From contig CAXXSR010000001.1 in assembly GCA_963662615.2 (NCBI GenBank), positions 480,001 to 544,000 of the forward strand: a stretch of DNA of 64,000 nucleotides, written 5' to 3'. The position numbers and the translations under genes are program-made. A model generated the notes under the pieces. That model saw only the letters and a program-made list of their open reading frames with translations. It searched no databases and was not told the DNA's origin. Below are positions 11,867-55,132 of this stretch, one piece after another. This DNA comes from Dehalococcoidia bacterium (GTDB lineage Bacteria; Chloroflexota; Dehalococcoidia; Bin125). Each line of letters starts with the position of its first letter. Positions within the stretch are counted from its first letter, which is position 1.

Positions 11867-12352
11867 CTATTTCGGTTTGCCCCCCGGTTCGTGCGTGCGC
11901 TTCTCGATCGATTGGCCGCGCTTCGCTTCCAGACGGGCGAAGGCCCGTCCCTTCTCCGGGTGCGGGTCTGCGACGAGACCGTAGATCTCGCGGCCTTCGT
12001 GGTCTTGGGGGAGATAGGTGGTGATGGGAAGACCTTCCGCATCGCAGAAGAGCAGTCAATGGCAGTACTTGTATTTCTGCATCTCGTCGCAGGGGCAGAT
12101 CCAAGTTGAGGACTTCACCTCTTCGTGCTTGTCCTCGTAGAAGTTGCAGGGGCAGAGCGGCCGGCCGAGATCGTCAACGTGCTTGGCCAAGCCGATCACG
12201 AGGAACTCGGTGATCTCCTTCTGCGGGTGCAGGAAGGAGCCGCTGCGCTCGGCATAGCCACGGACGAACTTCCACATCTTGGCCAGGCTCTTCTCCGACG
12301 CCTCCTTGCGGTCGGCGTCGGTGACCTGGTCCACGGGCTGTTCGTCAGCCAT
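11867..12352 (-). CDS. Ferredoxin:thioredoxin reductase catalytic subunit, probable selenoprotein (Sec at TGA 12056-12058), 161 aa
   Basis: CPC, CPC, then CH-TGA-LLF where the family has CHC; frame stays open to TAG at 11867-11869; SECIS-like hairpin follows. Confidence 0.85.
12023..12043 (-). promoter_or_regulatory. Bacterial SECIS-like stem-loop
   Basis: GAUG-C-GGAA-[GGUC]-UUCC-CAUC starts 12 nt after the UGA; G-first apical loop lies 21 nt from the UGA. Confidence 0.75.
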
Positions 12353-12405
12353 GTCCTGCTCCCTCCAAGCGGGATGGCGCGACCGCCATCGCAGCGCCGG
12401 CGCTA

Positions 12406-12480
12406 TGGCTAGTAATCGCGGCGCCGCCGCTTTGGCTAGTAATCGCGGCGCCGCCGCGACGGCTAGGAATCGGGGCGGCG
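12406..12480. repeat. 27-bp tandem repeat (about 2.7 copies) overlapping the PAC2 gene stop
   Basis: TGGCTAGTAATCGCGGCGCCGCCGC at 12406 and 12433, degenerate copy at about 12461. Confidence 0.8.
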
Positions 12481-13359
12481 ACTTTCGCGCAAGAAGTCCT
12501 CCAACTCCTCAATCAGCCCCTCCGCCGAAGGCAGCTCCAGCGGGGCGCCGGGGGGGACATCGGCGTCGGCCGGCGCCCGCGCGCCTTGCACTTCCTCCAA
12601 ACGGCGTATGTAGGAGGCCAGCCTCTCGTTCTGTTCGACCGCCGTCCGCATGCGTCGCTGGAAGCCGTCGATCTCCTTGTCAAGGTACTCGTAGTTCACC
12701 GTGAGGCCGGAAAGCTCGGCGAATTTCTCCAGCAACGATCGCGTTGCCATGGGGTTGCGCGCCCCCGGGAGGTAGTGAGGCACGCTGGCCCAGAAGCTGA
12801 TCCCATCGATCCCGCGCTGCCGGCAGAAGTCGTGGAAGACGCCCACAACGCCGATGGGGCCTTCGTAGCGGGACGGGTGCAACTGGTAGCGGTCGGCGAG
12901 CTTCGAGGCGTTGGCCGATCCGCGCACCGCGACGGGCCGGGTATGCGGGACCGGAGCGGCGAACGCGCCCAAGGTGACCACCAGCTCCACTTGCGTGGCG
13001 CCGATCAGCTCGGTGATGGCCCCCATGTAGCTCTTCCAGCGATGGTTGGGTTCCACGCCCGCCCCCAGGATGAGGTCCCGCGGCAGCTCCGGCAGCCGGG
13101 CGGCAAAGAACTCGGTGCTGGGCCAAACGATCTCGCGCTCGCCGTCGCGGTAGCGCGCCAGCGGTCGCGCCTGGGTGAAGTCGTAGTAGTCCTCCGGATC
13201 GATGGTGGCGAAGAGCTGCGCGTCCAGCGTGCTGATGAGCGAGCGGACCGCCTGCGAGGCCGCCTCGCCGGCGTCGTTCCAGCCGCTCCAGGCCAAGACG
13301 AGCAGGGGCGTGCGCAGATGCGGGGCGCTCTCCATCTGGAGGTGCGGATGTTCGGCCAT
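12463..13359 (-). CDS. PAC2 family (proteasome assembly chaperone-like) protein
   Basis: GWNDAGEAAS, DPEDYYDF..ARP, EPNHRW, PHTRP, YEGPIG and WASVPHY motifs. Confidence 0.92.
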   Translation of the reverse strand: MAEHPHLQMESAPHLRTPLLVLAWSGWNDAGEAASQAVRSLISTLDAQLFATIDPEDYYDFTQARPLARYRDGEREIVWPSTEFFAARLPELPRDLILGAGVEPNHRWKSYMGAITELIGATQVELVVTLGAFAAPVPHTRPVAVRGSANASKLADRYQLHPSRYEGPIGVVGVFHDFCRQRGIDGISFWASVPHYLPGARNPMATRSLLEKFAELSGLTVNYEYLDKEIDGFQRRMRTAVEQNERLASYIRRLEEVQGARAPADADVPPGAPLELPSAEGLIEELEDFLRESRRPDS

Positions 13360-13453
13360 GGCACCAACGATTGTAGCGATCGGGCGAAACGCCCGGCCAG
13401 CGGCGTCTGAGAGGCCGGATACATCCCCCCAACGCCCAGCACGGGGACATCCA

Positions 13454-13519
13454 TCCTTCGTGGCACAACCGTCCTTCATGGGGCATCTGTCCTTCATGGG
13501 GCATCTGCCCCATGAAGGA
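13454..13519. repeat. 18-bp tandem repeat ending in a 14-bp-arm inverted repeat
   Basis: Two exact TCCTTCATGGGGCATCTG units plus one degenerate unit; 13490-13519 forms TCCTTCATGGGGCA-TC-TGCCCCATGAAGGA. Confidence 0.8.
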
Positions 13520-13999
13520 TGGGGCGTCCGCACCTGCTCTCGGCGCCGGGCCGCGGCCACACTGAGCGCGAACTCAGGTGATTCAAGCGGGAACCGAGAG
13601 GCAGCCTCGATCGTCAAGTGCAGTAGCGGTCGAGACGGCCATCGCAGGGAAGCGGGGCGCAATGACTTTGAACCGGGCAGGGAACGCATTTGGGGCCGTC
13701 ATGGTGACGGCCGGGACCACGAGCGCCCCGTCGCAGCTGAAGGCGGCGGCGCGCGTATGGACGTAGGTGCGGACGGCCGCGGAGCGCAGGCAGGAGCGGA
13801 CCGCGGTCCTGGGCCGGCTGCACCGCTTGGCGGAGCGCGACCAGGTCGCAAATCGACGCGGATCGACGGCAGCGCCGCAGCGCGCCGAGGGCGGTTCCGG
13901 CGCGCGGCTTGACTCGCGGCTGGGGAACCGACGAAGGGTCCGCGTCGTCATGCCAGAAACGGCGTCACAAGTCGGCGCTCGCGGTTAGGACGGTTGAAG

Positions 14000-14258: not shown

Positions 14259-16127
14259 CTAGACGTGGAGAGCCTCGGCCACATCCGCGAGGCCCAGCGA
14301 TTCCAGCTTGCTGCGGCTGGGGGTGCAGGTCTCCGCGTCCCAGTCGCAGGCGCGGAGGAAGTCGCGCTCCATGGTCTCGGCATCGACGATGACGTCCTTC
14401 AGCGGCCCCGACTGCTGCGCCGTCCCCTCGCCGCCGTAGATGCGGCCGGGCACGTTGCGGGCGCGGGGGTTGTTGCCCTCGCGCACCTCAAAGGCCATGC
14501 GCAGGTTGGCGATGCGCTCGCCCGCGCGCTGAAGGTCGTCGCCGTTGATGCTCCAGCCGGTGACCTTATTGATCCACTCAGGGAAGCGGTCGGTGGGGGC
14601 GGTCATCATGATGAACTGGCACATGCCCGTGGCGTTGACGATGTGCATGTACTCGCTGGCGCCCTTGTGGTGCTCCCCCCGGTTCGCGTAGTCCTTGAAG
14701 TCCTTGGGCGCGCGCGGGTACTTGGGGCCGCCGAACGTGCTGCGACCCTCGTATTGGGTGTGCCGCGCCGGCGTGGGGTCCAGCTTGTAGGTGGTGTGGA
14801 ACTCCGGCTGCAGCTTGGGGTCGTGCATGGGCACTTCTTGCCCACCGATGTGCATGGCGTATTGCTCCGCGCCGCGGCCAATCTTCTCAGCCGCGACCTT
14901 GACGCCGTCGGCCAGCACGTCGCCGATGCCCTCGCGCTTCCCCATCTTGTGCAGCAGCGCGATGATCGCTTTGTCGTCTCCCCAGCGCAGCTCCAGGCCG
15001 TCCGTGTCCTCCTTCGTGAGGATGCCGTTCTCGAAGCACTCAACGGCGAACGAGATGGTCGCGCCGGCGCCAATGGTGTCCAGCCCGTACTCGTTGCAGA
15101 CGTGGTTGGCGAAGATCAGCGCGTCCAGGTCGTTCATCAAGTTCATGGTGCCGAAGGAGGCCATGGTCTCGTATTCGGGGCGGTGGGTGTGATGCGGGTA
15201 GGGGTACTGCGCGTTGCTTGATTCCACGCTCTCGGCGCCGCAGGCCAGCGGGCAGTGCCAGCAGGCGTAGTGCTTCTCCATCTTCTCGTTGACGACGGTC
15301 CCTTGCAGGCTCTCGACGTCGCTGAAAACGTCTTCGCCCACGCCGCCCCAGTTCTGCACGGGTGAGTCGCCGCTGTGCGCCGAGCCGGCGGTGATGCCGG
15401 TGGTGCCCACGGTGCGGAAGAAGTCGCGCAGTGGCGCCGCGAACTCGTCCAGCGACTCCTTCATCATCCGGCGCGCGTCCTTGTCGTGCTGCTGGATCAT
15501 CTGCCGGGTGGACTTCACCACCACCGCTTTGACCTTCTTTGATCCCATCACCGCGCCCACGCCGGAGCGTGCGGCCAGGCGGCCGTGGTCGTTGCAGATG
15601 CCGCTGAGGTAGGAGAGGTTCTCTCCCGACTGCCCGATCACGGCGACGGAGGCCTTCTTACCGTACTTTTCCTTGAACTGCTTTTCGGCGCTGATTGCGT
15701 CGATGCCCCAGTAGGCGGAGGCGTCCTCAATGCTGACCTTGTCATCCTCAATGAGAATGTAGACGGGGCGATCGGCGGCGCCGTAGAGGAGGATGCCGTC
15801 CCAGCCCGCGAACTTGAGGTAGGGGCCAAAGTCGCCGCCGCAGTTGGCGTCGCCCCAGCCGCCCGTGGGCGGGCTCTTGCAGACGGCCTGGAAGCGGTTG
15901 CCGAAGATGGGCGTGCCGGTCATCAGCCCTGGAATGAGCCCCAGAACGTTCTCCGGCCCCAGGGGGTCGGCGCCCTGCGGGATGCGGTCGAACAGCAGGC
16001 GCACGCCAATGCCGTAGCCGCCTAGATAGTCTTTGTACATCTGCTCGGGCAGCTCTTCCGGCGAGATCTTGCCGCTGCTCAGATCCACGTTCAGGATCTT
16101 GCCGTTGTATGCGAGTTCCTCCGGCAT
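14259..16127 (-). CDS. aor: Aldehyde:ferredoxin oxidoreductase (W/Mo AOR family)
   Basis: KILNVDLS, YLGGYG, KSPPTGGWGDANCGG, RSGVGAVMGSKKVKA, CWHCPLAC, EYET, GLDTI and HDPK motifs. Confidence 0.95.
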   Translation of the reverse strand: MPEELAYNGKILNVDLSSGKISPEELPEQMYKDYLGGYGIGVRLLFDRIPQGADPLGPENVLGLIPGLMTGTPIFGNRFQAVCKSPPTGGWGDANCGGDFGPYLKFAGWDGILLYGAADRPVYILIEDDKVSIEDASAYWGIDAISAEKQFKEKYGKKASVAVIGQSGENLSYLSGICNDHGRLAARSGVGAVMGSKKVKAVVVKSTRQMIQQHDKDARRMMKESLDEFAAPLRDFFRTVGTTGITAGSAHSGDSPVQNWGGVGEDVFSDVESLQGTVVNEKMEKHYACWHCPLACGAESVESSNAQYPYPHHTHRPEYETMASFGTMNLMNDLDALIFANHVCNEYGLDTIGAGATISFAVECFENGILTKEDTDGLELRWGDDKAIIALLHKMGKREGIGDVLADGVKVAAEKIGRGAEQYAMHIGGQEVPMHDPKLQPEFHTTYKLDPTPARHTQYEGRSTFGGPKYPRAPKDFKDYANRGEHHKGASEYMHIVNATGMCQFIMMTAPTDRFPEWINKVTGWSINGDDLQRAGERIANLRMAFEVREGNNPRARNVPGRIYGGEGTAQQSGPLKDVIVDAETMERDFLRACDWDAETCTPSRSKLESLGLADVAEALHV

Positions 16128-16269
16128 GGGCCGTCCCACCTTTCCTGCACGATCGCGCCCGGCGCCGCAGGCGCCTGGTCGTCGCCGCCCGATTATCGCG
16201 GAGCGACGCCGCCCGCCACAAGGGCCGCGGCAGTCCGTCCCCGCGCCGCCCGCCTACGAATTCGCCCGC

Positions 16270-19086: not shown

Positions 19087-20298
19087 ATGGCCAACCTCAC
19101 CCGCTGCGTGGTCGTCGGCGCTTCCCTGGCGGGCCTGCGCGCGGTCGAGGCGCTGCGGCGGGCCGGCTACGACGGCGCCATCACCATGGTGGGCGCGGAG
19201 GCCCACCTGCCGTACGACCGCCCGCCGCTCTCCAAAGAGATCCTGGCCGGCAAATGGGAGCCGGAGCGCGCCGGCCTGCGCGAGTCGGGGAGCTACGCGG
19301 AGCTGGATGTAGACCTCCGGCTGGGCCTGGAGGCGACCGCCCTCGACCCCGGTGCGCGTGAGCTTCAGCTTGACGGCGGCGGCCGGCTGCCCTTCGACGG
19401 GCTGATCATCGCGACCGGCGCCAGGCCCCGTATGCTGCCCAACACGCCCGACCTGGCCGGCATCTACACCCTCCGTACCTTGGACGACTGCCGCGCGCTC
19501 CGTGGCGAGTTTGAGGCGGGCCCGCGCGTCGTGGTGGTGGGGGCGGGCTTCATTGGCGCCGAGGTCGCCGCCACCGCCCGCGGGCGCGGCCTGGACGTCA
19601 CCTTGCTGGAGGCGCTCCCCGTTCCGCTGGCGCGCGCATTGGGGGAGGAGATGGGCGAAGCCTGTGCCGATCTTCATCGCGAGCACGGCGTCGACCTGCG
19701 CTGCGGCGTCAGCGTGGCCGGCTTCGACGGCGCCGGGCGGGTGGAGCGGGTGCGGCTGGCCGACGGCGCGACGGTCGCCGCGGACGTGGTTGTCGTCGGC
19801 ATCGGGGTGACGCCGAACACGAGTTGGCTGGAGTCGTCGGGGCTGCCGCTGCGTGACGGGGTGGTCTGCGACGCGACCTGCGCCGTGGCGCCGGGCATCT
19901 ACGCCGCCGGCGACGTGGCCCGCTGGGACAACCCGCTGTTCGGGGAGGAGATGCGGGTGGAGCACTGGACCAACGCGGTGGAGCAGGGCGCCGCCGCCGC
20001 CGAAAATCTGCTGGCCGGCCCGGAAGGGGCGCGCCCCTTCGCGCCCGTTCCCTTCTTCTGGTCCGACCAGTACGACACCAAGATCCAGTACGTGGGATCG
20101 TCCCGCGCCGACGACGAGGTGCGGGTCGTGCACGGCTCGGTCCGAGAGAACCGATTCGTGGCGATTTACGGCCGCAACGGGCGCATCATGGCGGCGCTGA
20201 CGTTCAATTGGCCCCGCTTGCTGCTGGACTATCGCCGCCTCATCGGCGAGCGCGCCTCCTGGGACGATGCGCTGGCCCATGCGGCGGAGGTTGGCTGA
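19087..20298 (+). CDS. FAD-dependent NAD(P)H:ferredoxin reductase
   Basis: GASLAG, PYDRPPLSK, ATG, GAGFIG, AAGDVA and VPFFWSDQYD motifs. Confidence 0.95.
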   Translation: MANLTRCVVVGASLAGLRAVEALRRAGYDGAITMVGAEAHLPYDRPPLSKEILAGKWEPERAGLRESGSYAELDVDLRLGLEATALDPGARELQLDGGGRLPFDGLIIATGARPRMLPNTPDLAGIYTLRTLDDCRALRGEFEAGPRVVVVGAGFIGAEVAATARGRGLDVTLLEALPVPLARALGEEMGEACADLHREHGVDLRCGVSVAGFDGAGRVERVRLADGATVAADVVVVGIGVTPNTSWLESSGLPLRDGVVCDATCAVAPGIYAAGDVARWDNPLFGEEMRVEHWTNAVEQGAAAAENLLAGPEGARPFAPVPFFWSDQYDTKIQYVGSSRADDEVRVVHGSVRENRFVAIYGRNGRIMAALTFNWPRLLLDYRRLIGERASWDDALAHAAEVG

Positions 20299-24446: not shown

Positions 24447-24502
24447 ACGTGCACACAGAACAGGGCGTAGAGGGTGCTGATGTACTGCCGTCACCGCAAA
24501 GT

Positions 24503-27493
<2,991 letters not shown>

Positions 27494-47244: not shown

Positions 47245-48770
47245 TGCCCCGCATCAACGTCCGCGCCGGCTCCATGGGTCGCGCTGTGGGCGCCCTCGAT
47301 CTGATCGACACGCTCCGCGCCGCCCTGCCCGACGTCGAGATCGTGGAGACGGGCAGTGACGGCGCCGGCTGGGCCGCGCCCGTGATCGCCGCCGCCGCCC
47401 GTCCTTCGACAGGCTCAGGACGAGCAGCGGCCGCCCCGGCGACGCCGGACGAGGCGGTGCGCGTCGCCCGCTCCCTCCTCGACGGCGACGGCGCCGACGA
47501 CGCCGTACTGCGCAGCTATCTGAGCGCGCAGACGCGCCGGCTGTTGGCGCGGGCCGGCGACATCGATCCCACATCGCTGGAGGAGGCGCGGGAGGCTGGG
47601 GCCTACCTGGGCTGGGAGCGCGCGCGCGGCGCTGCAGCGGAAGAGGTCGTGGCGACGGTGGAGGCGTCGGGGCTGCGCGGGCGCGGCGGCGCCTACTTTC
47701 CCCTGCACCTCAAGTGGCGCAGCGCCCGCGAGGCCGCGCAACGGAACGGCCGGCCCTTGCTCGTGATCAATGCGGAAGAAGGAGAGCCGGGCGTGTTCAA
47801 GGACCGCGTGCTGATGGAGTCAGATCCGCACGCGCTGATCGAGGGCATCCGCATCGCGGCGCATGCCATCGGCGCGGAGCGCGCCTATTGTTACATCAAC
47901 GGACAGGCCGAGCTTTCGGCGGAGCGCGTGCGCGGGGCGATCGACGCCGCGGAGACGGCCGGGATCGTGGGGCCGGACGCCGGGCTGGTGATCGAGATTC
48001 GCCTCGGCGCCGGCGGCTACGTCTGCGGTGAGGAGACCGTCATCCTGGAGAGCATCGAAGGGCAACGCGCCGTGCCGCGACTGCGTCCGCCCTTCCCCAC
48101 GGAGAGCGGCCTCTGGGGCCGGCCCACGGTGATCAACAACGTCGAGACGTTGTGCAACCTCCCGGCCATCTTCCGCGACGGTCCGGAACGGTTCCGCGAG
48201 GTCGGCACGGAGGAGGCGCCCGGCACCAAGCTGATCTGCCTGACCGGCAGCCTGCCGCACCCCGGCCTGATCGAGGTGCCGATGGGCACCTCCATCGCCG
48301 AGATCCTCCGCATCGGCGGCGCCGAGGATGCGGCGGAGCCGGTTGAGGGCGTCGTCGCCGGGGGGCCGTCCGGCGGCTTGCTGCCACCCAGCAAGTTCGA
48401 CCGCCCCATTGGCCCCGGATTCATTGACGAGGCCGGCGCGGTGCTGGGATCGGGCGGCATGGTGGCGTTCGGCGCCGCCTTCCCCGTCGCCGACGTGCTC
48501 GCCCTGGAGGCCGACTACAACGCGCAGGAATCCTGTGGCAAATGCACGCCCTGCCGCGAAGGCAGCGGCCGCCTCGCCGACGCCCTCCGCCGCCTGCGCG
48601 ACGGCAACGCCGCCGGCAAGCGCGCGGCGCTCCGCGACATTGAAGAGCTAGTACCCGTGCTGCGCCTGGCCTCGCTGTGCGGCCTGGGCCAGATGGCGCC
48701 TCACCCCGCGACCAGCGCCCTGCAGGACTTTGCGGAGGAGATCGGTGCGACGGCGAGGAGGGGACCATGA
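47244..48770 (+). CDS. NuoF-like FMN/NADH-binding subunit of formate dehydrogenase
   Basis: SGLRGRGGAYFP, NAEEGEPG, YVCGEET, INNVET, ESCGKCTPCREG and SLCGLG motifs. Confidence 0.95.
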   Translation: MPRINVRAGSMGRAVGALDLIDTLRAALPDVEIVETGSDGAGWAAPVIAAAARPSTGSGRAAAAPATPDEAVRVARSLLDGDGADDAVLRSYLSAQTRRLLARAGDIDPTSLEEAREAGAYLGWERARGAAAEEVVATVEASGLRGRGGAYFPLHLKWRSAREAAQRNGRPLLVINAEEGEPGVFKDRVLMESDPHALIEGIRIAAHAIGAERAYCYINGQAELSAERVRGAIDAAETAGIVGPDAGLVIEIRLGAGGYVCGEETVILESIEGQRAVPRLRPPFPTESGLWGRPTVINNVETLCNLPAIFRDGPERFREVGTEEAPGTKLICLTGSLPHPGLIEVPMGTSIAEILRIGGAEDAAEPVEGVVAGGPSGGLLPPSKFDRPIGPGFIDEAGAVLGSGGMVAFGAAFPVADVLALEADYNAQESCGKCTPCREGSGRLADALRRLRDGNAAGKRAALRDIEELVPVLRLASLCGLGQMAPHPATSALQDFAEEIGATARRGP

Positions 48771-51547
48771 CGACCGCGGATGCGCCCGCGACGACCGTGA
48801 CGCTCACAATCGACGGCGAAGCCCTGGCGGTGCCGGAGGGCAGCACGGTCCTGGATGCGGTGCTGCGAAACGACGGCAACTTCCCTCATCTCTGCAAGGA
48901 CCCCAACGGCCCGCCGCTGGGCGCCTGTCGCACTTGTCTGGTGGAGATCGATGGCACGCGCGGAATGCCGGCATCGTGCCACACGCCGGCGGCGGAGGGC
49001 ATGGTGGTGCGGACGACGGCGCCGGCGGTGGTCGCGGTGCGCAAGGGCGTGCTGGAGCTGACCCTGGCGATGCGCGACGCGTCGCAGACGGCGGAGCCGG
49101 ACTCGGAGTTGACGGTCAACGCCGCCTCCCACGCCGCCGATGCCCGTCGTTGGGACGGCAGCGCCAACACCCACCGCGATGACTCCAACCCCTTCTACCT
49201 CTTCGATGCGAGCGAGTGCATCCTTTGCGGGCGCTGCACGTCCGCCTGCAATGACCTGCAGAGCATCGGCGCGATCGGCATCGCCGGGACCGCCAAGGAG
49301 GCGCGCATCGCCCCGTTCGACGATGAACCGTTGAGCGAGTCCACCTGCACCTCTTGCGGCCAGTGCGTCGCCGCCTGCCCCACGGGCGCGCTGCGGCCGA
49401 AGCGCGCCGGCGCGCCGATCAAGACCGTCTCCACCGTTTGCCCCTACTGCGGCGTGGGCTGCGGCATCAAGGTCAGCGTCGACGCCGAGGAGCGGATTAT
49501 CCAAGTCGACGATGACCCCGACAACCGCTCCTCCGAGGGGCTGCTCTGCGTGAAGGGCCGCTTCGGCACCACCTTCGTCAACCACCCCGACCGGCTGACG
49601 ACGCCGCTGATCCGTCGCGCCGGCGAACTCCAGCCCGCTTCCTGGGACGAGGCGTTGGACCTCGTCGCCGACAAGTTCGTCGAGCACCGCGGCGCCTTCG
49701 GCGCCTTCTCCAGCGCCAAGGCCACCAACGAGGACAACTACATGATCCAGAAGTTCGTGCGCCTGTTGATGGGCACGAACAACATTGACCACTGCACGCG
49801 GCTGTGCCACGCGCCGTCAGTGGAGGCGATGCTGGCGCAGTTCGGCAGCGGCGCCACCTCCAACTCCTACACCGACTATGAGGACGCCGGCTGTCTCTTC
49901 ATCGTCGGCGCTGACCCCTCATCGAACCATCCGGTGGTGGCCAGCCGCATGCGTCGCGCCATTGAGGAGCGCGGCGTCAAGCTGATCGTGCTCAACCCCA
50001 AGCGCATCGAGATGTGCGACCACAGCGACCTCTGGCTGCGCGAGTTCCCCGGCACCGACGTGGCCGTGCTCAACGGCATGGCCCACGTCATCCTGGCGGA
50101 GGGGTTGGCGGACGAAGCGTTTATTCGTGATCGCACGGAGGGCTTCGAGGAGTGGCGCAGCGGCGTCGAACGGTACACGCCGGAGCACGCCTCCGAACTC
50201 TCCGGCGTCCCCGCCGAGCTGATCCGCCGGGCGGCGCGCCTCTACGCCGCTCCCGCCGGCGACGGCGCGCGCGAGGGGCGCAACGGCTCCTGCCTGGTCT
50301 GGGGCATGGGCGTCACCCAGCACACCAACGGACTGGCCAACTGCACGGCGCTGCTGAATCTCGCTCTCTTGGTTGGGCAGGTCGGCAGGGTGGGCAACGG
50401 CGTCTCGCCCTTGCGCGGCCAGAACAACGTGCAGGGCGCCGGCGACGCCGGCTGCATCCCCGACGCGCTCCCCGGCTACCAGCGCTACACGCCCGACGTG
50501 CTGGAGCGGTTTGAGGCCGCCTGGGGCGGTCCGCTCCCGGCCGAGGAGGGGCTGCGCGCCACCGACATGGTGGAGGCGATCGGTGAGGGGGCGGTCCGCT
50601 GCATGTACGTCGTGGGGGAGAATCCCGCCCTGACCGACCCCAACCTGGCCCACGCCACGAAGCTGCTGGAGAAGCTCGACTTCCTCGTCGTGCAGGACAT
50701 CTTCATGCACGAGACGGCGGATCTGGCCGACGTCGTCCTGCCCGCCGCCTCCTTCGCCGAGAAGGAGGGCACGTTCTGCAATAGTGAGCGACGGGTCCAG
50801 CGCGTCCGCCAGGCGATCCCGCCCATCGGCGGGAGCCGGCCCGACTGGGAGATCGTGCAGGATCTGGCGCCCCGCGTCGCGCAGCGGCTCGGCGTCTCGC
50901 TCCGAGGCTTCGACCACCCCGGCTCCGCCTCCATCTTCGACGAGATGGCGTCGCTGATGCCGATCGTCGCCGGCCTCTCGCATGCGCGCCTCGATCGGGA
51001 GGGCGGCATCCAGTGGCCCTGCCCCACGCCGGACCATCCCGGCTCGGCGCGGCTCTACGCCCAGGACTTTCCGCGCGGGCTGGGGAAGTTCATCGCCGTG
51101 GCGCAGACGGCCCCCAGCGCCGAGGAGCCCGACGAGCGCTACCCCTTCATTCTCAACACGGGCCGCGTCCTCTACACCTGGCACGGCGGCACCCTCACGC
51201 GCAGAGTCGAGGGGCTGGTGGAGAGCTTCCCCGAGCTGCGCGTCGCGCTGAACCCCAGTGACGCCGCCCGCCTGGAGATCGAGAACGAGGAGGCGATCTG
51301 GGTCGCCTCGCGGCGGGGCCGGCTAGAGGGCGTCGCCTTCGTCACGCAGGACGTGGCGCCGGGCTCCGTCTTCCTGCCCTTCACGCGCCTCAAGGAGAGC
51401 GCCGCCAACTGGCTGACCAACAACGTCTACGACGAGACCTCGCGCATCCCCGAGTTCAAGGTCTGCGCCGTCCGCATCGAGCGGGCGGGCGAGCCCACGG
51501 AGTGGCGGCGCGAGCGGCGGCGGGGCAAGCGGAAGCAGTACTGGTAG
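48767..51547 (+). CDS. fdhA: Formate dehydrogenase alpha subunit (Mo/W-bisPGD, Cys-ligated)
   Basis: N-terminal Fe-S motifs, CPYCGVGC, NNIDHCTRLCHAPS, PLRGQNNVQG and PEFKVCAV. Confidence 0.96.
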   Translation: MTTADAPATTVTLTIDGEALAVPEGSTVLDAVLRNDGNFPHLCKDPNGPPLGACRTCLVEIDGTRGMPASCHTPAAEGMVVRTTAPAVVAVRKGVLELTLAMRDASQTAEPDSELTVNAASHAADARRWDGSANTHRDDSNPFYLFDASECILCGRCTSACNDLQSIGAIGIAGTAKEARIAPFDDEPLSESTCTSCGQCVAACPTGALRPKRAGAPIKTVSTVCPYCGVGCGIKVSVDAEERIIQVDDDPDNRSSEGLLCVKGRFGTTFVNHPDRLTTPLIRRAGELQPASWDEALDLVADKFVEHRGAFGAFSSAKATNEDNYMIQKFVRLLMGTNNIDHCTRLCHAPSVEAMLAQFGSGATSNSYTDYEDAGCLFIVGADPSSNHPVVASRMRRAIEERGVKLIVLNPKRIEMCDHSDLWLREFPGTDVAVLNGMAHVILAEGLADEAFIRDRTEGFEEWRSGVERYTPEHASELSGVPAELIRRAARLYAAPAGDGAREGRNGSCLVWGMGVTQHTNGLANCTALLNLALLVGQVGRVGNGVSPLRGQNNVQGAGDAGCIPDALPGYQRYTPDVLERFEAAWGGPLPAEEGLRATDMVEAIGEGAVRCMYVVGENPALTDPNLAHATKLLEKLDFLVVQDIFMHETADLADVVLPAASFAEKEGTFCNSERRVQRVRQAIPPIGGSRPDWEIVQDLAPRVAQRLGVSLRGFDHPGSASIFDEMASLMPIVAGLSHARLDREGGIQWPCPTPDHPGSARLYAQDFPRGLGKFIAVAQTAPSAEEPDERYPFILNTGRVLYTWHGGTLTRRVEGLVESFPELRVALNPSDAARLEIENEEAIWVASRRGRLEGVAFVTQDVAPGSVFLPFTRLKESAANWLTNNVYDETSRIPEFKVCAVRIERAGEPTEWRRERRRGKRKQYW

Positions 51548-53647: not shown

Positions 53648-54421
53648 CTAGAGGCTCCTGGCGAATTTCTTCCCTGCGTCGAAGGCGACCACCCGCTCGA
53701 TGCCGGCGGCGTGGCAGGCGGCGGCGATGGCCGCCGCGCTGGGCTCGTTGAGCGCGGCCTGCGCGATCACGACCGCGAACTCGGCGGCCGGCGGGACCTG
53801 CTTGCGCCCGCCCTGCGGATGCGCCAGCACGGCGGCGATCAGGTCCGGCGTCAGCGGCTCGCCCGCCGTCGCGCCGGTGAGCGCCGTCACCCGCTCGGGC
53901 CGGTGCACGGCGCGCTCATCGAGGGGGCGGCCCAGCACCGTCACCGCTACGACGGCGAGCACGTGCGTCACCGCCTCCGGCAGCACCGGCTCGTGATCGG
54001 CGGGCGCCTTGAAGGCGCGCCCGGCGGCGCCGTCCGCCTCCACGCCCACCAGCTCCACCCCCTCCAGCGCCAGCGCCTGCCGCGGCCAGTCCGGCGCGAC
54101 CGCGCTGATGCGGCCGCGTTCGCCGCGGCCGCTGCCGACGATGATGGCGGCGTGGCCGCGGCGCTGCGCATCGTCGATGGCGGTGGCGCGCACGAGCGGA
54201 TTGGTCGCCAGCGCCAACGGCAGTTCAGACGCCTCGCGGGGGATCGTGAACTTGGTGGTGGTGGTCAGGACGCTGAAGCCGTGCCGGCCGGCGGGCGCCG
54301 CCGGGGCCCAGCGCTCTTGGGCGAGCGCGAAGAGCAGCGTCGTCTTGCCGCCCCCGCCCACCGTGGCGACTATCGCGGGTCCGTCGATCCCAATCGCATC
54401 ATGCAGCGGCTGTGAGGCCAT
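53648..54421 (-). CDS. yqeC: Selenium-dependent molybdenum hydroxylase accessory protein YqeC
   Basis: VGGGGKTT, LTTTTK, VEADGA..FKAPADHEPVLP, VHRPE and HPQG motifs. Confidence 0.92.
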   Translation of the reverse strand: MASQPLHDAIGIDGPAIVATVGGGGKTTLLFALAQERWAPAAPAGRHGFSVLTTTTKFTIPREASELPLALATNPLVRATAIDDAQRRGHAAIIVGSGRGERGRISAVAPDWPRQALALEGVELVGVEADGAAGRAFKAPADHEPVLPEAVTHVLAVVAVTVLGRPLDERAVHRPERVTALTGATAGEPLTPDLIAAVLAHPQGGRKQVPPAAEFAVVIAQAALNEPSAAAIAAACHAAGIERVVAFDAGKKFARSL

Positions 54422-54475
54422 CCCCGCGCATCGTACCGTTTCGAGACGCCGCATTGAGACGGATACACTGTCCGC

Positions 54476-55132
54476 GTGACGGAGCCTGAGTCTCCTCAAC
54501 CGTTCAGCGTCGCGATCCTGGCTGGGGGCTTCGGCACTCGCCTAGGCCAGGAGAAGGCGGGCGCGCTCGCGGCGGGCCGCCCGCTGCTGGAATGGACGGC
54601 GGAAGCGCTGGCAGGCTTGAGCGACGACCTCCTGGTCGTCCGCCGTGTTGACCAGACGCTGCCGCCCGCGCCGGCCGGCGTCACCTGGCGCGAGATCACC
54701 GATCGCCGCGCGCAGGCCGGGCCGCTGGCCGGCATTGAGGCCGCGCTGCAGGCGATCCGCCACGACGTCGTGGTGACGGTCGCCTGCGACATGCCGCTGA
54801 TCCGGCCGACGCTGGTCCGCGCGCTCGCCGCCGCCTGCGCCGATGTCGACGTGGTGATGCCGTACCTGGACGGGCGCGACCAGCCGCTCCTGGCGGCCTA
54901 CCGGCGCACCTGCCTTGCCACCATTGACGCGCAGCTCGCCGCGGGCGACGGTCGCATCCGCGCCATCGTGCCGAAGCTGCGCAGCCGCCGCCTGGAACGG
55001 CCGCAGCTGGAAGCGTTCGATCCTGATCTGATCTCCTTCACGAACATCAACTACCCCGCCGATCTGGAACGCGTCGCGACCGAGCTGACGCGTCGCGCGA
55101 CGGCGGGCGAGCGCGCGGAGGATGCACCATGA
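54476..55132 (+). CDS. mobA: Molybdenum cofactor guanylyltransferase
   Basis: ILAGGFGTRLGQEK, GPLAGI, ACDMP, QPLLAAY and NINYPAD motifs. Confidence 0.93.
   Translation: MTEPESPQPFSVAILAGGFGTRLGQEKAGALAAGRPLLEWTAEALAGLSDDLLVVRRVDQTLPPAPAGVTWREITDRRAQAGPLAGIEAALQAIRHDVVVTVACDMPLIRPTLVRALAAACADVDVVMPYLDGRDQPLLAAYRRTCLATIDAQLAAGDGRIRAIVPKLRSRRLERPQLEAFDPDLISFTNINYPADLERVATELTRRATAGERAEDAP

Follow-up and report, generated by a model that had tools for sequence, protein, structure and literature searches.

Whether an in-frame TGA, at which a short reading frame of a Dehalococcoidia bacterium is annotated to end, represents a true stop or a codon for selenocysteine (Sec) is the question raised by this locus, which lies within a 64,000-nucleotide stretch of DNA, hereafter referred to as the window. 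Read on the minus strand, the frame opens with an ATG (12352-12350), located 8 nt downstream of a Shine-Dalgarno-like GGAGGG that can be read directly in the sequence (12361..12366, minus strand), and under translation table 11 it ends after 98 aa at a TGA (12056..12352). If this TGA, which is codon 99 (12058-12056), is read through, the frame continues to a TAG (11869-11867), giving a coding sequence of 161 codons plus the TAG (11867..12352, minus strand) and a product of 161 aa. All the elements of this longer frame, as they had been described in the initial annotation, are present in the sequence, the strand being the minus strand. In public protein collections the gene is represented solely by a shortened product of about 93-104 residues, the 161-aa sequence being missing from them; the 98-aa fragment belongs to a cluster with 134 members, the lengths of those listed (15) ranging from 73 to 104 aa. 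A promoter scan found no promoter-like site near the gene, and the two terminator-like sites found in a terminator scan are both on the plus strand, opposite to the gene. In the one RNA run available (X20, share 0.05), no contig covered the gene. The reading that we favour, with a probability of about 0.88, is that the gene specifies a single-subunit homologue of the [4Fe-4S]-type ferredoxin:thioredoxin (disulfide) reductases (FTR), whose UGA99 would be decoded as Sec by means of a SECIS element.

From the perspective of family and fold, sequence comparison and structural modelling agree in placing the read-through protein among the FTR catalytic subunits. The catalytic core, which spans residues 23-106 (12035..12286, minus strand) and contains C67, C69, C86, C88, C97 and U99, is recognised by Pfam PF02943 (FeThRed_B) with 87.7 bits (cut-off 22; 6.6e-25), and the FTR catalytic chains of the PDB match it at 1e-23, with 42-46% identity and with all six Cys columns aligned. 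In the 161-aa product these positions appear in the motifs PLCPC, WICPC and KYCH-U-LLFC. Since in the alignment with 1dj7_A the chain index equals the query residue n-12, the six positions listed above correspond, respectively, to indices 55, 57, 74, 76, 85 and 87. An AlphaFold2 model built from 55 sequences reaches a mean pLDDT of 92.3 and, over the model range 13-108, is superposed on 7c3f, 7bzk and 1dj7 with Z scores of 12.6-13.0 and an rmsd of 1.1-1.6 Å over 90-94 residues. The canonical FTR catalytic subunit (FtrC/FTRB; 1dj7, 2pvo and 7bzk) shares with this protein the CPC/CPC/CHC motifs, the identity just given, an rmsd of 1.1-1.6 Å over 89-94 residues and, presumably, a mechanism based on a [4Fe-4S] cluster next to a redox pair (PMC3838966), but carries its last Cys where this protein has U, and the C-terminus of this protein is different, and longer, after residue 108.

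The codon under discussion (UGA99; 12056..12058, minus strand) stands in the alignment column where the CHC motif has its last Cys, which corresponds to index 87 of 1dj7_A, and this sixth Cys position aligns with Cys in the PDB chains and in 54 homologues. A homologue search gave 829 matches, and full-length Cys homologues align over 90-97% of the read-through protein. That Sec takes the place of this last Cys had been proposed from the single sequence, together with a comparison of homologues as a way to check it, and the proposal is supported by the pairing of Cys and TGA found at this column. The gene is present in all 36 of the genomes searched within the same Dehalococcoidia family, and for 28 of these genomes the codon at the column was confirmed to be TGA. 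Among the loci of relatives (n=30, the present one included), 29 of 30 have TGA at the column and the remaining one, which belongs to another family, has TGC; these TGA counts took in only loci whose codon was read, one genome (G055) having a single internal TGA, yet TGC at the column. A second set, made up of the 80 best named loci among GTDB species genomes, which all belong to Chloroflexota and are mostly labelled Dehalococcoidia, yielded 67 TGA, 11 TGC, one TGT and one missed locus under a strict pattern; the missed locus (L049) reads TGA with a looser pattern, which brings the count to 68/80. The first redox Cys, in the CPC motif, is retained without exception in the 96 TGA sequences counted. 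Four residues past the Sec position (U-L-L-F-C; codon 103, 12044-12046), another Cys is present in 93/96 TGA forms, whereas the same position is occupied by Val in 11/13 Cys forms; because this +4 Cys is encoded by both TGC and TGT, it seems to be the residue, and not the bases, that is selected. This pattern is one of several lines of evidence that make the decoding of UGA99 as Sec very likely.

An assembly error can be excluded as the origin of the TGA, given that three DNA runs, each from an independent study, yielded contigs that span codon 99 and show no letter other than TGA. It could also be argued that the TGA is a real stop, so that the product is a truncated fragment of 98 residues, or a pseudogene, and the frame downstream is untranslated. 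Every gene caller does end the gene there, the fragment cluster of 134 members exists while the read-through protein is missing from the collection, and the hairpin that follows the codon, described below, is not significant by itself. Nevertheless, a product of 98 aa would end before the final residue of the redox pair, and the region 3' of the UGA behaves as a translated sequence: in 82 unique TGA sequences, codons +15, +16, +21 and +36 to +38 encode invariant or near-invariant residues, and these same codons carry 1.4-1.8 bits of synonymous variation. By this comparison, the 38 codons 3' of the TGA are translated and under selection at the protein level. Moreover, the downstream region aligns with the invariant residues of the Cys homologues, and the TGA itself is kept in the proportions given above (29/30 and 68/80 loci), in at least four families verified at the column. 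A real stop is, in view of these data, very improbable, and the reading of UGA99 as Sec is the one followed here.

With respect to the signal that would direct Sec insertion, a hairpin composed of a 4-bp stem, a 1-nt 5' bulge, a second stem of 4 bp and a GGUC loop (12023..12043, minus strand) begins 12 nt past the UGA. The initial annotation had pointed to this hairpin, and it is present, conserved among TGA forms and similar to that of fdhF. Taken alone, its fold is unremarkable: a single-sequence fold of 44 nt has -9.7 kcal/mol and a z of -1.24, with 20/200 shuffles being equally good, and in a fold of 86 nt the hairpin is missing from the MFE structure. The hairpin alone is, hence, not beyond chance, and its significance comes only from the comparison between loci. 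In this comparison, the 12-nt apical stem-loop is identical in 29/29 of the relatives' TGA loci and in 65/67 of the named TGA loci, and codons +5 to +9 show a synonymous entropy of 0-0.17 bit in TGA forms versus 0.54-1.83 bit in 13 Cys forms. On this sequence evidence, the nucleotides of the hairpin are frozen only in TGA forms, that is, they are under a constraint at the RNA level. The cells of the stem are paired in 99.5% of cases, as opposed to 31-63% after sliding the partners. One stem pair covaries (GC 20, CG 4, UG 2 and mismatch 1), the support from covariation being thin because 7/8 pairs never vary and because the sequences are also related. No Rfam family fits the hairpin, either at the gathering threshold or at E <= 10, where the only hits were chance ones to snoRNA and sRNA models.

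The hairpin does show the features described for bacterial SECIS elements, namely a stem-loop located just 3' of the UGA with a G in the apical loop (PMC9312934, PMC2398784), and it is kept among UGA forms. When the corresponding region of fdhF from E. coli K-12 was folded here, both elements were seen to share the GGUC loop and a single-nucleotide 5' bulge below the apical stem. They differ in the spacer between UGA and hairpin (12 nt here, 11 nt in E. coli fdhF) and in the stems, which are of 4+4 bp here versus 3+3 bp in the apical part of the E. coli fdhF element and are unlike in sequence. One further locus (L114, on the same contig as L146) has a TGA without the canonical stem-loop and with Val at +4, a shorter alternative hairpin being visible by eye; in a quick tree with weak support, this locus falls among the Cys forms.

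The genome (2.66 Mb in two contigs, 93.6% complete) encodes the machinery that Sec decoding requires. A tRNA-Sec scores 74.5 bits and is called SeC with anticodon TCA by ARAGORN, SelA scores 443 bits, the winged-helix domain of SelB is found in a frame of 653 aa, and selD scores 369 bits. All four of selA, selB, selC and selD, which had been put forward as the genes to look for, are hence present. The selD gene (G000:C1:19276-20211; L011) has its own in-frame TGA, situated at the position of the N-terminal active-site Cys; a hairpin with a G-first loop lies around 27 nt further 3' of this UGA. A thioredoxin gene (130.7 bits; G000:C2:309610-310205) is separated from the tRNA-Sec gene by approximately 200 bases and shares its strand. 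Within the window, the presence of yqeC (53648..54499, minus strand), a marker of the selenium-cofactor trait that serves here as context only, was also confirmed as initially described, with 104.9 bits for Pfam YqeC and 149 bits for TIGR03172 (cut-off 73). It adjoins a gene for a MobA-like NTP transferase (54476-55132, plus strand), and a gene for a formate-dehydrogenase-like molybdopterin oxidoreductase of 956 aa, with no in-frame stop, lies nearby (48677-51547, plus strand). Three findings had been named at the outset as telling against Sec, these being a genome devoid of selABC, reads with TGC or TGT at the codon and homologues ending at CH; what was found is that selABC is present, that the contigs contain neither TGC nor TGT, and that the homologues continue past the CH.

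Any kind of read-through would account for a frame that is open and conserved past the UGA, including suppression, or a changed genetic code, by which a standard residue (Cys, Trp or Gly) is inserted without selenium. Several observations speak against this. Among nine neighbouring genes supported by Pfam, TGA is the ordinary stop in three and an internal TGA occurs in none; a dedicated tRNA-Sec, SelA and SelB are encoded; and a structured element is frozen just 3' of the codon only in TGA forms. Additionally, the state of the codon tracks selA in the ten genomes tested, since selA is found in 5/5 further TGA-form genomes versus 2/5 Cys-form genomes. Within one family (f38), selA is present in the TGA genome and was not found in two Cys genomes (94 and 97% complete). 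Decoding as a standard residue has, accordingly, very little to recommend it, and decoding as Sec is retained.

Regarding its distribution, the gene was detected at E <= 1e-20 in 33/151 genomes of an even sample of the class (own genome included). Of 12 regions fetched from this sample, nine fit the motif pattern, with seven TGA and two TGC, several of these nine being the same contigs as the named loci. To judge from the 36 genomes searched within one Dehalococcoidia family and the 28 confirmed at the column, the Sec form appears to be fixed across that whole family, and the TGA form extends to several further families of the class. Two of the nine loci, from family f34 (L147 and L148, from genomes G174 and G123), carry a more distant type of FTR sequence with TGA at the same column and a different hairpin, with a G-rich loop, at the same codons, which may represent a second origin of Sec or a diverged SECIS. 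A quick tree, which is to be taken as a hint only (SH-aLRT support only, 54/98 forks open, midpoint root), gathers 77/78 unique Sec rows in one group with a support of 87. Two Cys rows (L100 and L110) nest inside this Sec group, and in both the Cys at +4 and the greater part of the SECIS stem-loop are retained, so that, by sequence, they look like recent Sec-to-Cys reversions. This tree would fit one main gain of Sec with rare reversion.

FTR homologues containing Sec are not new. Zhang and Gladyshev (2008) described them as a new selenoprotein family from GOS metagenome reads, on the basis of two sequences, of which one had both of its redox-active Cys replaced by Sec (PMC2398784), so the initial remark that Sec-FTR had been predicted from metagenomes is right, the prediction having been in print since 2008. 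The entry 'Ferredoxin-thioredoxin reductase, CxU' is listed in reviews of 2022 and 2026 (PMC9312934, PMC13188914), and the latter ties it to NCBIfam NF041072 (FtrB_double_U). The GOS Sec-FTR, as described there, resembles the present protein in its Pfam and COG family, in having Sec at a redox-active position within C-x-U and in the SECIS located just 3' of the UGA; it differs in that the present protein has a long conserved tail and comes from Chloroflexota/Dehalococcoidia. The FtrB double-selenoprotein of NF041072 has two Sec, whereas here there is one UGA only and the first motif is CPC; with a score of 35.9 bits against an equivalog cut-off of 160, and a single Sec, this protein is not an NF041072 equivalog. 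The BSepDB paper counts Dehalococcoidia among the selenoprotein-rich bacteria, and the word 'ferredoxin' does not occur in its main text; the same Chloroflexota clade may already be in GOS Dataset S2 or in the BSepDB tables.

The closest Cys counterparts are single-subunit FTR-like proteins from Chloroflexota, Nitrospirota and Methylomirabilota, which share 54-69% identity with the query in the alignment of 55 sequences (up to 70% in the homologue search), an identity that extends into the conserved portion of the tail, up to around residue 137, and which differ in having TGC or TGT at the column, no frozen hairpin and Val at +4 in the proportion already given. The C-terminal tail (residues 109-161; 11870..12028, minus strand) is conserved and predicted to be ordered up to around residue 150, after which it is basic and variable. 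Eleven of its residues (H118, E119, G120, R121, Y124, G125, D129, P130, P132, G135 and R136) are invariant in 55 sequences, the pLDDT of the blocks covering residues 101-150 is 93-98, and the tail falls outside the range of the model that aligns with canonical FTR chains. The pattern ..EGLPITEYLPEDHEGRxxYG..DPxPxKGRA.. is kept in Cys homologues of 135-175 aa, those bearing it being named Dehalococcoidia, Nitrospiraceae and Methylomirabilota. Conservation of the tail downstream of the column, one of the points originally singled out for checking, is thereby found in the homologues. The accompanying suggestion that the extended form is what is new is not supported, as hundreds of Cys-containing bacterial homologues keep this tail, the full-length ones of that length among them; since it characterises the bacterial subfamily throughout, with its Cys members, the tail is neither new nor linked to selenium. 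The canonical heterodimeric FTR of oxygenic phototrophs has a variable subunit, and none was found here: searching the genome, 93.6% complete, for its gene (PF02941) yielded nothing at E <= 1, which agrees with the description of FTRV as exclusive to oxygenic phototrophs (PMC9025218). The tail might, as was suggested at the outset, take the place of this subunit.

Directly upstream of the FTR gene lies a conserved neighbour, a gene of the PAC2 family (12463..13689, minus strand; Pfam PF09754, 1.3e-50), which is found beside the FTR gene in 53/109 related loci, many of them with only 1.5 kb of flank, and which is a possible operon partner. A gene for an ABC solute-binding protein recurs in 36/109 related loci. 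A 27-bp tandem repeat (12388-12477; 3.3 copies, 87% matches) extends from the last part of the PAC2 gene into the spacer that separates it from the FTR gene; the contigs of two runs (X2 and X5) have one extra 27-letter copy, indicating that the number of repeats differs between populations. Further upstream, past PAC2 and a few genes away from the FTR gene, there is an aldehyde:ferredoxin oxidoreductase gene (14259-16139, minus strand). Elsewhere in the window, a ferredoxin-reductase-like pyridine nucleotide-disulphide oxidoreductase is encoded at 19087-20298 (plus strand), and a 23S rRNA gene with a tRNA-Met at 24502-27493 (minus strand).

These surroundings bear on the question of the substrate. 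The protein may be a genuine selenoprotein but of the FDR type, reducing a disulfide other than that of thioredoxin (in another redoxin or in a small molecule), perhaps together with the upstream PAC2-family protein. FTR-like proteins with other partners have been solved, namely the FDR of M. acetivorans (4tpu) and a glutaredoxin-FDR fusion (7pwe); both match the query and, as here, have an FTR-like core without a variable subunit. The lack of a PF02941 match in the genome, the conserved tail without a counterpart in canonical FTR and the adjacency of PAC2 in 53/109 loci would also suit such a role, as would the TrxR-like genes encoded elsewhere in the genome, of which there are three (209-290 bits, under the equivalog cut-off of 343). 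However, the core is far closer to true FTR, by the match, identity and Z scores given above, than to either of these proteins, which have much weaker matches (1.3e-6 for 4tpu and 0.0084 for 7pwe), Z scores of 6.4 and 7.1, respectively, and an rmsd of 4.7-5.6 Å, and which have a rubredoxin or glutaredoxin domain that is absent here. Furthermore, the genome encodes three thioredoxins that exceed the curated cut-off. No thioredoxin or ferredoxin gene was found adjacent to the FTR gene, and given that the thioredoxin and TrxR-like genes are not adjacent to it, an FDR-like role, although unlikely, stays a real rival to the reduction of thioredoxin.

In the favoured reading, that of a Sec-containing ferredoxin:thioredoxin reductase homologue, tRNA-Sec and SelB would decode UGA99 after being recruited by the fdhF-like SECIS located inside the coding sequence, 12 nt 3' of the codon. 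Sec99 (index 87) would then pair with Cys69 (index 57), which remains Cys, and with Sec in place of the last Cys of CHC the active site near the cluster would be a selenenylsulfide rather than a disulfide. Residue 87 of FTR is reportedly the cluster-side atom, a point attributed to Dai et al. 2000 and 2007, and we take the cluster-side residue of the FTR active site to be the position occupied here by Sec99. By analogy, selenium is likely to sit on the cluster side of the active site.

In the FTR cycle as published, ferredoxin gives one electron to the cluster, upon which one sulfur of the opened disulfide attacks thioredoxin and the other becomes the fifth ligand of a cluster iron, and a second electron frees the product (PMC3838966). 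Following this cycle, reduced ferredoxin would supply two single electrons to the cluster of the present enzyme, and one member of the opened chalcogen pair would attack the disulfide of the substrate, with the other binding transiently to a cluster iron. The insertion of selenium, the binding of the cluster, ferredoxin as donor, thioredoxin as acceptor and the atom that touches the iron are all features that we infer. A more specific proposal for this Chloroflexota clade, in which selenium on the cluster side forms a Se-Fe bonded one-electron intermediate and the Cys of U-x-x-x-C is a co-evolved protective or resolving partner in a selenenylsulfide, is speculative and we regard it as doubtful. 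If true, the Se-Fe intermediate with U-x-x-x-C would be a mechanistic variant of FTR not described for Cys enzymes.

The locus does not define a new class of system, Sec-FTR having been in print for well over a decade. Its relevance lies, in the first place, in annotation: the protein is annotated only as a fragment without its catalytic residue, and this widespread member of the Sec-FTR proteins is routinely truncated, so that selenoproteome counts and redox reconstructions of these abundant uncultured bacteria are incomplete. In the second place, the family offers a natural swap of Cys to Sec beside a catalytic [4Fe-4S] cluster, accompanied by many Cys controls and two apparent revertants, and this Sec/Cys series constitutes a comparative set for the contribution of selenium to one-electron disulfide chemistry.
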